A stretch of 61,874 nucleotides of DNA, the filler included, from Theionarchaea archaeon (GTDB lineage Archaea > Methanobacteriota_B > Thermococci > Methanofastidiosales > SZ-28-30), in assembly GCA_018992565.1 (NCBI GenBank). It is 3 parts of 3 records of this genome, joined end to end, with 100 filler letters (N's around TTAATTAATTAA, not from the genome) between each part and the next. Parts side by side here need not be neighbours in the genome. Positions count along the whole stretch, not along the records: positions 23,396 to 46,519 come from JACVGW010000042.1; 2 more parts are not named here. One strand, given 5' to 3'. The notes under the pieces were generated by a model. The model searched no databases. It was not told the origin of the DNA and saw only the letters and a program-made list of their open reading frames with translations. How positions within the stretch are numbered: position 1 is the stretch's first letter; every line of letters starts with the position of its first letter. Below are positions 28,717-35,113 of the stretch, in pieces. The translations under genes and the position numbers were made by a program.

Positions 28717-28815
28717 TCTTTTGTTTTTGCTTTATTATTCACCTTTTTTTTCTCTCAGGTTGGCTTTGAGGATTTCATGGTTCTGCTGACCCGGTGACTG
28801 TGCAAATCTATAAGA

Positions 28816-29619
28816 ATGCCAAATCAATCCTGTAGTATGAACCTGTTTCCCGTGAAGTTCCCTATTATTGGTATGATCCATTTACTTCCTCTTCCTGGCT
28901 CACCACTGTTTATAGACTCCCAGTCTATATTCTACAGGGCAAATCATGATTATCACGTCTTGCGAGAGGGAGGAGTGGATGGCGTACTCATTGAAAACTT
29001 CGGAGATGTTCCCTACACGAAAAGCAAAGTCTCCCCGCAGGTAGTAGCCTGGATGACCAAAATTGTATCATCTCTGGCAATTGACATACCTTTTGGGATC
29101 AATGTACTGAGAAATGATGCCATATCTGCATTAGCTGTTGCTCACGCCACAGGGGCTCATTTTATCCGATGCAATGTCTTAACAGGAGTCATGGTGACTG
29201 ATCAGGGGGTGATTGAGGGAAAGTCTGCAGAAGTCTTGCGCTACCGTTCTCTCCTGCAGTCCAATGCCAGAATTCTCGCTGACATTCACGTGAAGCATGC
29301 ATATCCTCTGGTATCCCAGCCTCTTGAACGCACGGCCAGAGATACTGCTCACAGGGGATTGGCTGATGGACTCATTGTGACAGGAGAAGAGACAGGAGCC
29401 CCGCCCACCAGTGAGGACATGAAAGCAGTGAAAGAAGCAGTTCCAGACAGGCCACTCTTTGCAGGAAGTGGTGTCACCCTTCAGAACGTGGAATCTGTGC
29501 TCAGGCTTTGTGACGGATGCATTGTGGGGAAGGCTTTCAAGAAGAATGGTAAAATGGAGAATCCTCTGGATCTGACCAGGGTGAAGTCATTTGTGCAGAA
29601 GGTAAGAGACACGCAGTAG
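28816..29619 (+). CDS. BtpA/SgcQ family protein
   Basis: IGMIHLLPLPGSP, ENFGDVPY, GINVLRND, ADIHVKH. Confidence 0.93.
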   Translation: MPNQSCSMNLFPVKFPIIGMIHLLPLPGSPLFIDSQSIFYRANHDYHVLREGGVDGVLIENFGDVPYTKSKVSPQVVAWMTKIVSSLAIDIPFGINVLRNDAISALAVAHATGAHFIRCNVLTGVMVTDQGVIEGKSAEVLRYRSLLQSNARILADIHVKHAYPLVSQPLERTARDTAHRGLADGLIVTGEETGAPPTSEDMKAVKEAVPDRPLFAGSGVTLQNVESVLRLCDGCIVGKAFKKNGKMENPLDLTRVKSFVQKVRDTQ

Positions 29620-29741
29620 CACCCTGTTCGATATCTTTGTTGTTCACCCTGAATTGCTTCAGACAGACTGCCACGTGTCTCTGCCATGTAGCACGTACTC
29701 TGGCCTTCCAGAGAGATGAAAAGAATCAACATACACTGGAA

Positions 29742-29877
29742 CGGACCTGGGGGGATTCGAACCCCCGACCTACAGCTTTCTTCGCCTCTGCTAACTCTCT
29801 TTAGATCATTCAATCATCGAGCGGATGTTCATCATCGGCATAGGAGGCTGTTGCCCTATCCTCTAGGCTACAGGTCC
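29742..29877 (-). tRNA. tRNA-Arg(CCT) with 63-nt intron at 37/38 (intron 29778-29840)
   Basis: Acceptor GGACCTG/CAGGTCC, anticodon stem ACAGC/GCTGT with CTCCTA|A loop, T-arm GGGGGTTCGAATCCCCC; bulge-helix-bulge junction; no encoded CCA. Confidence 0.93.
29784..29839 (-). ncRNA. Putative box C/D guide RNA inside tRNA intron
   Basis: GCC/GGC terminal stem, box C ATGATGA, box D variant CAGA, internal D'/C'-like TGA motifs. Confidence 0.65.
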
Positions 29878-30016
29878 TATTCTATACTTCTGGACAGAAT
29901 ATATAACTCTTTCGAATCTTTCCCGTAACAATGAAGATAGCCTTTCCTGCTTTCAACGGCTCACGACAGGCAACAATGACAATTCCTTGCAGGAACCGAA
30001 CCCAGCGATGCTTCCA

Positions 30017-30508
30017 CTAGTCTTGAGAGAATATATACTCCAGCAACCTCTTTCCCAGGTCTACCACCTCCCAGAAGTGGTCAGTCACTGCCAGGTATCC
30101 TGCAGAAAACATGATGGCCAGCATGACTCCCAAGGGGAAGGAAAACACACTGGAATTGGGTACTCCCCACCCACCAACACCTATCTGGCCCCCATTGTGG
30201 GGTATCGGCCACAGAACGTACACAGGAGAGCTGCTGAACATATCCATTACGATGTGGAGGCACATCCCCATAACCCAGTACACCAGAAAAGGAATCCTGA
30301 AAGACACAACTCCAATCGCTCCCACCACAAACACGTTGTGAAGGAGCCTCCGATGAAGCCCCTGGGAACTGACAGGGATATCCACAATATCCAGATCACA
30401 GAACAGCCCTCCAAACACAATGAGAGATGCGGTCAAGGGGGGGACTCCTGCCAGCATTGCAGCTGTAGCCAGGATCAATCCGGCCGTCAAGTGCGCCTTC
30501 TGGTTCAT
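30017..30508 (-). CDS. Membrane-bound metal-dependent hydrolase (YbcI-like)
   Basis: H near N-terminus, DLD, HRRLLH, H..MD, LWP motifs. Confidence 0.8.
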   Translation of the reverse strand: MNQKAHLTAGLILATAAMLAGVPPLTASLIVFGGLFCDLDIVDIPVSSQGLHRRLLHNVFVVGAIGVVSFRIPFLVYWVMGMCLHIVMDMFSSSPVYVLWPIPHNGGQIGVGGWGVPNSSVFSFPLGVMLAIMFSAGYLAVTDHFWEVVDLGKRLLEYIFSQD

Positions 30509-30669
30509 GCAACCACCTCTCCTCTCCAGTTAAAAGGTTATTTCATCCACAGGTAGGAGTATTCAACAGACTGCCCTCTGACTATAACCCTGCCCTCAAG
30601 AGGGTTGAAACCAATCACAGCTCCACACCACATGTGAACCCTTAAAAACCTCGGACCGAATTCCACCAC

Positions 30670-32406
30670 ATGAAGATCGTTCCTGATACCAGTATTGTCA
30701 TTGATGGAAGGCTGAAACGATTTCTTGAGCAGAACACGGTAGATGAAATCATCCTGCCCGAACTTGTCATTGCAGAAGTGGAATACAATGCCAACAAGAG
30801 GACGCGAATTGGCATTACAGGACTGCAGGAACTGACTGAAATCAGAGAGTACTGCCTCACTCACAACATAATGCTCACCTATTACGGGGAAAGGACACAT
30901 GATTACAGAGACATGGATGAAAAAATCAGGAAAGTGGCAGAGGAGACCAATTCCATTCTGGTAACAGGCGATTTCGTCCAGGGTAAGATTGCAGACGCCA
31001 AAGGTATCTCCTGCTTGATCCTGGAAAAAGAAGTTGAAACGGAAATGAAAATTGAAGATTTCTTTGACCCCCAAACCCTTTCTGTTCACCTGAAAGAAGA
31101 CCTGCCTGTCCTGCTGAAAACAGGAAAACCAGGGGACATCGACCTCGTGAGAACCCAGCGAATGCTGAATAGAGAAGAACTGGAAGCAATTGCGCTGGAC
31201 ATTGTAGAGAGGGCCAGGCAGTCTCAGGATTCTTTCATTGAACTGGACGAAAAAGGGGCTACAGTGGTCCAGTTGAGGGAGTACCGTATTGCCATTACCC
31301 AGCCCCCCTTCTCCGACCGCATGGAGATTACTGCAGTAAGACCCTTAAAGAAGCTGGCTCTGCCTGAATATACCGTATCTGGCAGGCTGCTGGCACGGTT
31401 TGAGAAGGCAGAGGGAATTCTGGTCTCCGGGTCTCCTGGTGCCGGGAAATCCACCTTTGTGCAGAGCCTGGCTGAATTCTACAAAGACAAGGGCAAGATT
31501 GTCAAGACTATGGAGAAGCCCAGGGACCTGCAAGTGTCTGAAGAAATCACCCAGTACACTGCCCTGAGGGGATCTATGGCCAAGACAGCAGACATTTTGC
31601 TGTTGACCAGGCCAGATTTCACTGTTTTTGATGAGATGCGAAAAACAGAGGACTTCCAGGTATTTGCTGACATGCGGTTGGCTGGAGTAGGCATGGTGGG
31701 AGTGGTGCATGCCACAGATGCAATTGATGCAGTACAGCGGTTCATTGGACGAATTGAGCTGGGGATGATACCTCAGGTCATTGATACTATTGTCCACATC
31801 GAAAACGGGGATATTGGCACCGTGCTGAACCTGACCTTCTCTGTCAAAGTCCCCCACGGGATGAGTGAACCTGATCTGGCGCGCCCTGTTATCGAGGCAA
31901 AAGACTTTGAATCAGGAGTATGTGAATTTGAGATTTACTCTTACGGGGAGCAGATCGTCGTCATGCCTGTGAAGAAGCAGAACCGCACTCCACCGAAGAA
32001 GATACTCAAGAATATTGACAAGTTCGTGGGGGTGGACTACAGGCTGGAGCAGGTAGCACCCAACAAGGGCATCCTGTACGTTCCAAAAGAGGCCATGGCT
32101 GAAATTATCGGGAAGAAGGGGAAGACCATCTCCCAGATCGAAAAGGAAGTGAACATGAACCTGGACGTCAAGCCCATGGAAGAGCAGATTCCAGTGAATC
32201 TGGATTTTACCAAGAGAGCGGGACGTCTTTCTGTAAGCAGGCGATACAGGAATGTTCCTTTGAACTTTTACTGCAAGGGAGAACCTCTTTTTTCTGCTAC
32301 TGTGGGGAAGAAAGGGGTCATAAAGATCGACCTTCAGAGTAAGCTTGCACATACCCTCTATGACATCTGGAACAGAGGAGACACTGTCTATGCCAAGGAA
32401 GAATAG
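30670..32406 (+). CDS. pina: PINA-type ATPase (PIN + ATPase + KH)
   Basis: VPDTS PIN start, [27 protein letters not shown]. Confidence 0.92.
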
Positions 32407-32478: not shown

Positions 32479-32745
32479 ATGAACCTGGTTAAGAAAGGCA
32501 AAGCAGGAACTGATGATGATTCTGACATTCTTGTAGAAGTCGAACCCGCTGATACTGTTACTATTGAACTTGAAAGTAGGGTTGACCAATTATACGGAAA
32601 GAAAATCCGGGAAGTCATTATGAGAACACTGGAAAGTCTTCAGGTGAAAGGGTGTATCATTACTGCTCACGATAATGGAGCTCTTGATTATACGATCCGG
32701 GCACGTGTTGAAGCTGCTGTACGATTGGCAGGAGGGGTGGTATGA
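32479..32745 (+). CDS. citD: Citrate/citramalate lyase acyl carrier (gamma) subunit
   Basis: AGT...SD, S.V...YG..I, D.GALD..I.AR. Confidence 0.88.
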   Translation: MNLVKKGKAGTDDDSDILVEVEPADTVTIELESRVDQLYGKKIREVIMRTLESLQVKGCIITAHDNGALDYTIRARVEAAVRLAGGVV

Positions 32746-33584
32746 TACGCAGATCTCGCTTATACATTCCTGGCAATAACCCCAAGATGATACAGAGTGG
32801 GAAGGCACTGAAGCCTGATGTCATTCTGCTGGACCTGGAGGATTCTGTCCCTATCCAGGATAAACTGGCAGCACGTCTCCTTGTCAGGGAAGCTATCAAA
32901 TTTTTGCAGTTCAAGAATGAAGTCATGGTGAGAATCAACCACTTTCCCATGGGAAGAGAGGATCTAACGGAGATTGTATGTGAACAGCTTGATTCTATTC
33001 TCTATCCAAAGACAGAATCCTCGCAGGATATAGAAGAGGTCGCTGGACTGCTGGAGGATCTGGAAAAGGCCAGGTCCCTCTCCAAGAAGATTGAGATTGT
33101 GCCGGTGATTGAAACTGCCAGAGGGTGCCTGCGCTGTGAGGAGATTGCATTCTCCCCCAGGGTTTCAGCCATCACCTTCGGGGCAGAGGACTTTGTTGCA
33201 GATATTGGAGGAACCAGAACCAGGGAATGTCTCTTCCACCTGAAATCAACTCTTGCTGTTGCCGCTGCTGCAGCGGGGATTCAGGCTCTGGACACGGTGT
33301 ATCCATTCATTGATGATGAGAAGGGATTACGAGAAGAAGCAGAAGAGAGTAAGGCCATGGGATTCTGTGGGAAAGGGGCCATCCATCCCCTGCAGCTGAA
33401 TGTCATCCATGAGGTATTCTCGCCCTCTGAAGAAGAGGTAGCATGGGCACAGAAGGTTATTGACGCTATGAAAGAAGCAGAAGAGAAAGGTAGAGCAGCT
33501 GCAGCACTTGAAGGGAGGATGATTGATACACCCACGTTGAAGAAAGCTCACCGCATTATGGAAACATTCAAGGTGATGACATGA
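32742..33584 (+). CDS. citE: Citrate/citramalate lyase beta subunit
   Basis: RRSRLYIPG, DLEDSV, VRIN, IETARG, GAEDF, GK.AIHP. Confidence 0.92.
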   Translation: MIRRSRLYIPGNNPKMIQSGKALKPDVILLDLEDSVPIQDKLAARLLVREAIKFLQFKNEVMVRINHFPMGREDLTEIVCEQLDSILYPKTESSQDIEEVAGLLEDLEKARSLSKKIEIVPVIETARGCLRCEEIAFSPRVSAITFGAEDFVADIGGTRTRECLFHLKSTLAVAAAAAGIQALDTVYPFIDDEKGLREEAEESKAMGFCGKGAIHPLQLNVIHEVFSPSEEEVAWAQKVIDAMKEAEEKGRAAAALEGRMIDTPTLKKAHRIMETFKVMT

Positions 33585-35113
33585 TTGTGAATGCAGCAGG
33601 CAGGAAGCTCCCTGAGACTATTGGGGGCCAAAAGGTGGAGCCCTTCATGGGAGCATTTGCCACACCTCCCCGGAAGAAGAGACTGGCTCCCAAGCTCTCC
33701 TACGTGAAACCGGGAGAGGACAAGCTCATGTCTCTGGACGAGGCTGTCATGAAGTACGTGAAAGATGGTATGACCATCTCGTTCCATCACCACCTGCGGG
33801 ATGGAGACTACCTGGTGAACCAGGTGCTGGAGATGGTGTCCACTCTGGGGATCAAGGATGTGGTCCTGGCGTCTACTGCACTGTTCCCCGTTCATGAACC
33901 AGTGGTGCGCCACTTGATGGATGGGACAGTACGAAGGGTTGAAGGTAGTATGAATGGGCCAGTGGGAAGAGCATGCTCTTTTGGACATATGAAGGAAATT
34001 GCCACTCTCAGAGACCATGGGGGAAGAGGAGCTGCTGTGGAAATGGGAGATCTTCCCATCGATGTGGCCTTTATCGCTGCCCCCACTGCAGATGACTATG
34101 GTAACTGCAATGGTGTTCACGGGAAATCAGCCTGTGGTCCTCTGGGTTATTCCTACCCCGACTCGCTGTATGCCAAGAAGGTGATTGCAGTCACTGACAA
34201 CCTGGTGGAGTACCCCGTGACTCCCATGAGCATACACCAGACGCATGTGGATCATGTTGCTGAAGTTGAGACTATCGGGAATCCGGAGCAAATAGTCTCG
34301 GGCACGACCAAGGTTACCAAGAGCCCCACCAACCTGCAGATAGCGGAGTATGTGGTGGAGACCATGGATGCTCTGGGTATTATCAGTGAAGGTGCTTCTA
34401 TCCAGGCAGGTGCAGGAGGAATTTCCCTGTCTGTAACCTCCCAAATGGGAGACTTGCTGGAAGACCGCCATATCGTGGGTGGATTTGGACTGGGAGGTGT
34501 TACCCAGTACCTGGTGGACATGCTACACAGGGGAGTAATCAAAAAGATTCTGGACGCCCAGTGTTTTGATCTCACTGCAGTGCAATCACTGCGGGATGAT
34601 CCTGACCATGCAGAGATCAACATCATTTACAGCAGCCCCTACAATAAGGGATCCGTGTACAACAAGCTGGACGCAGCATTCCTGGGGGCTACGGAGGTAG
34701 ATCTGGACTTCAATGTCAATGTCAACACCCACTCTGATGGGCTCTTGCTCCACGGCATTGGAGGCCATCAGGGACCTGCAGCCTGTGCCAAAGTCACCTT
34801 TATTACCGTACCACTGTACAGAAAGAGAATTCCTGTAATCCGGGACAGAGTGACTACCATTTCCACACCGGGAGAAGTTATCGACGTCATTGCCACAGAA
34901 TATGGTATTGCTGTAAATCCCAGAAGGAAAGACATCCTGAAAAAGGTTGAAAATACCAAAATACCTGTTCTCACTATTGAAGAACTGAAAAAGGAGGCAT
35001 ACGACCTGTGTGGTGAGCCTGAACTTCCCGATACCACAGATGACATTGTAGCTGTGATCCAGTGGAGGGATGGGACCATCCTGGATACGGTAAAGAAAGT
35101 GGTGGAGAAGTAG
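33581..35113 (+). CDS. citF: Citrate/citramalate lyase alpha subunit (CoA transferase)
   Basis: ISFHHHLRDGD, HGGR, GKSACG.LGY, FNVNV.T.SDG. Confidence 0.93.
   Translation: MIVNAAGRKLPETIGGQKVEPFMGAFATPPRKKRLAPKLSYVKPGEDKLMSLDEAVMKYVKDGMTISFHHHLRDGDYLVNQVLEMVSTLGIKDVVLASTALFPVHEPVVRHLMDGTVRRVEGSMNGPVGRACSFGHMKEIATLRDHGGRGAAVEMGDLPIDVAFIAAPTADDYGNCNGVHGKSACGPLGYSYPDSLYAKKVIAVTDNLVEYPVTPMSIHQTHVDHVAEVETIGNPEQIVSGTTKVTKSPTNLQIAEYVVETMDALGIISEGASIQAGAGGISLSVTSQMGDLLEDRHIVGGFGLGGVTQYLVDMLHRGVIKKILDAQCFDLTAVQSLRDDPDHAEINIIYSSPYNKGSVYNKLDAAFLGATEVDLDFNVNVNTHSDGLLLHGIGGHQGPAACAKVTFITVPLYRKRIPVIRDRVTTISTPGEVIDVIATEYGIAVNPRRKDILKKVENTKIPVLTIEELKKEAYDLCGEPELPDTTDDIVAVIQWRDGTILDTVKKVVEK

Follow-up and report, generated by a model that had tools for sequence, protein, structure and literature searches.

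A tRNA-Arg(CCU) intron as a candidate box C/D guide RNA for helix 69 of archaeal 23S rRNA

In the accessible parts of two reviews and two original studies, the intron of tRNA-Trp is the named case of a box C/D RNA within a tRNA intron (PMC7994747, PMC11408192, PMC4090602, PMC3218864), and the same parts describe it as guiding methylation of C34 and U39 in its own tRNA. For the elongator tRNA-Met of Nanoarchaeum equitans, the available portion of a further study (PMC3491384; Randau, 2012) describes a stable RNA that derives from the 66-nt intron and carries elements of boxes C and D. As far as these partial texts go, guides in tRNA introns have been treated as a curiosity of tRNA-Trp, plus one candidate in Nanoarchaeum tRNA-Met. 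In eukaryotes, a snoRNA is processed from the intron of its host, and guide and host are thereby co-expressed, as stated in the accessible part of PMC7994747. In archaea, helices 68, 69 and 71 are hotspots of predicted guide-directed methylation, according to the portion of PMC4644070 (Dennis, 2015) available to us.

Here we describe a tRNA-Arg(CCU) gene whose intron has the layout of a box C/D RNA and is probably a working guide with a target in trans, the C1920 equivalent of helix 69. In the main texts of openly accessible articles, we found no prior report of a guide in a tRNA-Arg intron.

The host gene and the layout of its intron

The original prediction had placed a tRNA-Arg(CCT) gene with a 63-nt intron at 29778–29840 of the window, by which we mean the whole stretch of 61,874 bases that was analysed, and these coordinates proved exact when each boundary was checked on the sequence. 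This tRNA was the single RNA gene called by Rfam in the window, with a 65-position insert in the anticodon loop of the alignment, and joining exons of 37 and 36 nt yields a 73-nt cloverleaf. The features are as follows.

29742–29877, minus strand: tRNA-Arg(CCU) gene, interrupted by a single intron (Rfam RF00005; score 56.5 bits, gathering score 29)
29899–29906, minus strand: TATA-like box TTATATAT, at -29 to -22 relative to the tRNA start (sequence reading)
29841–29877, minus strand: 5' exon, 37 nt, ending in the anticodon loop CTCCTA (positions 32–37)
29778–29840, minus strand: intron, 63 nt, at position 37/38, the candidate box C/D RNA (bulge-helix-bulge by hand)
29837–29839, minus strand: 5' strand of the terminal stem, GCC, also the outer splice helix (base-paired in the RNAfold MFE, with co-variation at the homologous positions of alignment A1)
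29829–29835, minus strand: box C, ATGATGA (sequence)
29818–29828, minus strand: D' guide, 11 nt, ACATCCGCTCG (sequence)
29814–29817, minus strand: box D' variant ATGA (sequence and layout pattern)
29803–29809, minus strand: box C' variant ATGATCT (sequence and layout pattern)
29791–29802, minus strand: D guide, 12 nt, AAAGAGAGTTAG; its complement, on the plus strand of the window, is CTAACTCTCTTT (core common to seven metagenome loci)
29787–29790, minus strand: box D variant CAGA (A1 column)
29784–29786, minus strand: 3' strand of the terminal stem, GGC (RNAfold MFE and A1)
29778–29783, minus strand: intron tail GAAGAA, of which four bases pair with positions 32–35 and the last two lie in the 3' bulge (by hand)
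29742–29777, minus strand: 3' exon, 36 nt

In the splice motif, drawn by hand, anticodon-loop positions 32–35 pair with the four intron bases that precede its last two, with three of the four pairs formed and one C-A mismatch; the related loci L064 and L072, introduced below, have two mismatches in this helix. Two 3-nt bulges lie on opposite strands four pairs apart (T36, A37 and T1; A62, A63 and A38); the anticodon stem borders them on one side and the intron helix GCC/GGC, as outer helix, on the other. The elements of a canonical archaeal tRNA intron were all found, namely position 37/38, two 3-nt bulges and a 4-bp central helix, here paired at three of four positions. By this folding, the bulge-helix-bulge is near-canonical, with both predicted cuts after the second bulge base, and its register after A37 gives the anticodon CCT and thus arginine.

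Read from 5' to 3', the intron consists of one base, GCC, one base, box C, the 11-nt guide, box D', a 4-nt spacer, box C', the 12-nt guide, box D, GGC and a 6-nt tail, so that the terminal stem is the 3-bp helix GCC/GGC. Set against CAGA, box C gives by hand a K-turn geometry of 3-bp stem, 3-nt bulge, G-A and A-G pairs, and then T-A and G-C pairs; the T-A pair replaces the usual T-T mismatch, and the GA of box D is kept. Box C, box D, a terminal stem and internal D'/C' motifs with guides of about 12 nt, the elements that define an archaeal box C/D sRNA, are all present, with boxes D, D' and C' all as non-canonical variants. A C-D'-C'-D pattern, composed after the intron had been seen, matched once in the window, at this intron, and in 0 of 100 dinucleotide shuffles, in keeping with the terminal stem, box C, K-turn-compatible box D and D'/C'-like motifs that had been predicted.

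Upstream of the gene, TTATATAT is presumably its archaeal TATA-type promoter, and a T-rich stretch follows the 3' end of the gene; the two together suggest a tRNA with its own promoter. No separate promoter for the intron RNA was seen when the sequence was read. The end of a BtpA-family gene lies at a distance of 123 nt from the tRNA, and further neighbours encode a PIN-ATPase-KH protein (PINA; 30670–32406) and citrate lyase beta-like and alpha subunits (32742–35113). Relatives of the BtpA neighbour reached at most 52% identity in a scan of genome contigs, and best identities for the PINA protein were 49% and 56% in the two archaeal phyla searched. Among the matches listed, DNA near-identical to 28800–30600 occurred in 20 rows from 6 studies, none of them RNA, and the runs concerned came from marine sediment, estuary, mangrove and soil metagenomes. 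Given its occurrence across six studies, the organism appears to be widespread, and many of these rows may represent the source of the window itself.

Related introns and complementarity to helix 69

We scanned metagenomes with a pattern that required only CTCCTA, box C within 10 nt and a T-loop 45–75 nt further on. This retrieved 54 loci, 11 of which were exact duplicates of another locus; the window's own sequence was absent, and 27 of the 54 passed a simple cloverleaf test of acceptor and anticodon stems. The core GAGAGTTA of the window's D guide was common to seven of them (L064, L065, L068, L070, L071, L072 and L094). One base after this core stands CAGA in six loci and CTGA in L065, and directly after it a stretch that pairs with the bases ahead of box C to form a stem; guide core, box D and terminal stem all lie outside what the scan pattern demanded. 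Conservation of the boxes in related introns, which the original prediction had named as a sign of a genuine guide, was found in this group: box C and the D guide core recur in the window and 7 of the 54 loci together with box D, which reads CAGA in 7/8 and CTGA in 1/8.

Alignment A1 comprised nine sequences, one of them L057, whose D guide is a different one. Its box D columns read CAGA in 8/9 and the canonical CTGA in 1/9 (L065), and six of the seven box C positions were invariant, a conservation that is not independent because the scan pattern demanded box C. The terminal stem changed sequence among relatives, with GC in six, TA in two and AT in one sequence at one pair, CG in seven and TG and TA in one each at another, and compensatory changes in 7 of the 17 predicted pairs overall. 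The stems found in the group are GCC/GGC, CAGTC/GGCTG, GGCC/GGCC, ATCC/GGAT, TTCC/GGAA, GCGCC/GGCGC, GCATGCC/GGCATGC and GTGGATC/GATCCGC. The tRNA bodies around these introns differ, and the intron middle has diverged, mostly to a hairpin in place of D'/C'.

Rfam scored a tRNA above threshold in seven of the eight group loci, including L094 and excluding L065. In both L065 (1.24-Mb contig) and L094 (1.56-Mb contig), the 5' half of the tRNA-Arg is not contiguous with the anticodon arm, which suggests, from the arrangement of the sequence, a further intron or a split gene. Five other loci (L060, L066, L082, L096 and L098) are tRNA-Arg-like with box C after CTCCTA and have no clear 3' anticodon strand; they adjoin a PIN-ATPase-KH gene 50–54% identical to that at 30670–32406, and the same gene-tRNA adjacency is seen in the window. 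In sampled genomes of two archaeal phyla the scan pattern had no match (0/401 and 0/201), and a DNA search with tRNA plus intron against four genomes matched the 3' half only. A loose pattern gave 30 matches on viral contigs, all of them chance juxtapositions with other tRNAs.

Regarding targets, the guides had been predicted to lack complementarity to the host tRNA, and indeed their longest complement in its exons is 4 nt, which gives no support to a role on the host tRNA. The D guide had instead been expected to pair with helix 69 and, by the N+5 rule, to select the C1920 equivalent, and this agrees with what we found in LSUs of another phylum than the window's: at helix 69, the complement of guide positions 2–11 was exact in 5 of 12 LSU loci from the phylum of G004, giving 10 contiguous pairs, with 8 contiguous pairs in a further 5/12 and 6 in 2/12. 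Among 19 LSU rows from the phylum of G001, 11 differed from the 10-mer by a single A-to-G change, which by our own reading leaves 11 contiguous pairs that include one G-T and the base next to box D; three rows had a C in the stem, and five (from four genomes) were interrupted or atypical at the site. L019 and L020, the first two LSUs examined, had no helix 69 match to the D guide. When aligned with E. coli rrlH by MAFFT, the 10 paired bases correspond to 1917–1926, and the N+5 base, opposite the fifth guide position, is C1920. In bacteria, C1920 of helix 69 is the site of 2'-O-methylation by TlyA. As helix 69 forms a bridge between the two ribosomal subunits, a C1920-equivalent site would be functionally sensitive. 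In three LSU loci (L110, L116 and L137), an insert, probably an rRNA intron, interrupts the 23S gene; it begins within a few bases of the 3' side of helix 69, directly beyond the segment that the guide is predicted to pair with.

Matches of 10 nt arise by chance in a 6-kb rRNA locus for 2.7% of shuffled guides and 1.4% of random 12-mers, and at this rate the 10-nt match of the D guide is by itself only suggestive. It gains weight because the conserved part of the D guide is the part that pairs, and because three relatives have a second complementarity to the adjacent segment. The 12 nt that follow box C in L068, L070 and L071 can pair at 9/10 positions with the segment just 3' of helix 69, which begins 25 nt after the start of the helix (about E. 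coli 1931–1940); this complementarity was present in 22/22 LSUs, compared with 4 of 3000 shuffles. In this segment, the D' guide of the window, ACATCCGCTCG, matches only 6/10 bases. Against the 12 LSU loci, its best contiguous match was 9 nt in 1/12, or, with G-T allowed, 9 pairs plus one G-T of 11 in 3/12, which is within chance.

Alternative explanations

The alternative that survives best, and one we still consider unlikely, is that the intron forms a real box C/D RNP directed elsewhere than C1920 of helix 69, whether to another rRNA, tRNA or mRNA site, or that it works as a folding chaperone that does not methylate. The helix 69 match comes from LSUs of phyla other than the window's, and guide position 1 and positions 10–12 vary among relatives, both of which would fit another target. 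However, the 8–10 nt of the guide that are conserved are precisely the bases complementary to a nearly invariant rRNA segment, and the second complementarity of three relatives to the adjacent rRNA segment also points to helix 69.

An ordinary tRNA intron, in which the C/D-like motifs are due to chance or are the relic of a decayed guide that no longer works, is improbable in our assessment. It would account for the variant form of boxes D, D' and C', for a D' guide that finds no target, and for a 10-nt rRNA match of a kind obtained by chance in 1.4–2.7% of trials. It would also be consistent with the Rfam results, since no C/D family reached its gathering score on the window. On the eight related loci, none matched at E values up to 1. 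Eight Pyrococcus C/D families gave sub-threshold matches on the intron, the best being sR34 (RF01273), a free-standing gene. Its 21.6 bits (E = 0.08 in a 401-base search) fall below the gathering score of 40, and the intron is not a member of RF01273 by the Rfam rule. The intron does align end to end with the sR34 model, whose consensus D guide differs in 2 of 12 positions and, as in the window, is followed by a non-canonical box D. Against chance or decay stand the absence of the layout from all 100 shuffles and the retention of guide core and box D in seven loci with different tRNA bodies. A guide core and box D that are kept while the intron middle diverges and the stems co-vary form the pattern expected under selection on the guide.

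A third explanation, which we regard as very improbable, is that the conserved elements serve splicing or maturation of the tRNA, through the outer helix and a K-turn that recruits L7Ae to fold the precursor, and that there is no trans-acting guide. The terminal stem is indeed also the outer helix of the bulge-helix-bulge, and given this double role, its co-variation cannot separate the two functions. Yet a splicing role leaves unexplained both the conserved single-stranded 8–10 nt next to box D and the complementarity of that stretch to helix 69.

Finally, it is hardly credible that the gene is a tRNA-Trp(CCA) with the known intron guide methylating its own tRNA, as would follow from the intron mode of ARAGORN, which called tRNA-Trp (cca) and shifted the 63-nt intron by two bases towards the 5' side. 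In that register neither cut would fall in a 3-nt bulge, whereas the register after A37 gives by hand two such bulges four pairs apart. In the Arg register, the CTCC/GGAG central helix of L068 and L071 is perfect, and ARAGORN itself called Arg (cct) with an intron in 23 of the 54 metagenome loci. The exons contain no match to the guides longer than 4 nt and no complement at host positions 34 and 39, and the D-loop carries A20, which is typical of tRNA-Arg.

As an observation on annotation, ARAGORN found nothing in the window without its intron mode and was thus either blind to 29742–29877 or, with that mode, wrong (Trp), so routine annotation is likely to lose or mislabel this gene. If the intron is a guide, long introns ought to be checked for guide RNAs whenever tRNA genes are annotated by pipeline.

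Proposed pathway and comparison with known systems

The gene, the position of its intron, the motif layout, the conservation in relatives and the complementarity to archaeal LSUs were observed directly. On this basis, we propose that the intron is a trans-acting box C/D guide for the C1920 equivalent of helix 69, and we consider this the probable reading of the locus, with splicing, stability, protein binding and methylation as its predicted steps. The tRNA-Arg(CCU) would be transcribed from its own TATA-type promoter, and in the pre-tRNA the anticodon arm and the intron ends would fold into the bulge-helix-bulge, where the endonuclease would cut after A37 and before A38. A ligase would join the exons, and the 63-nt intron would probably be circularised. 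Once freed, the intron would act as a box C/D small RNA in which a K-turn arises from the 3-bp stem, box C and CAGA, and an internal K-loop from D'/C', and both would bind L7Ae, Nop5 and fibrillarin. The 12-nt guide before box D would pair with the 3' half of helix 69, and the RNA would thus serve the ribosome in trans instead of modifying its host tRNA. The 2'-O-methyl group would be placed on the first C of the 3' strand of the stem in helix 69, the equivalent of E. coli C1920.

Two further families of introns were recovered at the same position of tRNA-Arg(CCU). The second family (L056, L059, L062, L063, L067, L069 and L074) has a textbook layout of GTGATGA, a 12-nt guide, CTGA, ATGATGA or GTGATGA, a 12-nt guide, and CTGA or CAGA, together with a perfect CTCC/GGAG central splice helix; its guides are unlike those of the window and had only 7–9 nt matches in the LSU panel. 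In the third family (L055, L058, L078, L083, L084, L088, L093, L095, L097, L102–L105 and L107), the D guide precedes a box D of CGGA or CAGA and has a 10-nt complement in 16S rRNA at L112:356–365, inside an Rfam SSU_rRNA_archaea call covering model positions 632–1478. The guide of L079 is another again; 4 of 12 LSU loci contain a 10-nt match to it, located in the sequence that flanks the LSU on its 5' side (L108:840).

Tentatively, and with the balance tipped slightly against it, the tRNA-Arg(CCU) intron may be a recurrent host of ribosome-directed C/D guides in several uncultured archaeal lineages, with at least four unrelated guide sets, counted as the helix 69 family, the textbook C-D'-C'-D family, the 16S-matching family and the single cases L079 and L100. 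If so, archaea would have an equivalent of the intronic snoRNAs of eukaryotes, modification of rRNA would be coupled to the expression of one rare-codon tRNA, and guide genes would seem to move into, or swap within, a fixed tRNA intron site. The helix 69 guide, if real, would mean that archaea, like eukaryotes, also deliver rRNA guides via introns, and it would single out a concrete position, the C1920 equivalent, in lineages for which sediment metagenomes are the only source.

Compared with described systems, the locus combines familiar elements in a different host. The euryarchaeal pre-tRNA-Trp intron (Haloferax volcanii; Pyrococcus sR50) is likewise, in the accessible parts of the sources, a C/D RNA at position 37/38 released via a bulge-helix-bulge. 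That intron acts on its host tRNA, whereas the present candidate sits in tRNA-Arg(CCU) and its D guide finds a match in 23S rRNA. The Nanoarchaeum tRNA-Met intron is similar, as far as its partly available description goes, in being a C/D-bearing intron of a non-Trp tRNA, with a different tRNA and lineage. TlyA makes the same C1920 2'-O-methylation as predicted here, but is a stand-alone protein enzyme without a guide RNA. Eukaryotic intronic box C/D snoRNAs resemble the candidate in that an rRNA guide derives from the intron of a host gene (PMC7994747, accessible part). Their hosts, however, are spliceosomal introns of mRNA or non-coding genes, processed by debranching and exonucleases, in contrast to a tRNA intron and the tRNA endonuclease here.
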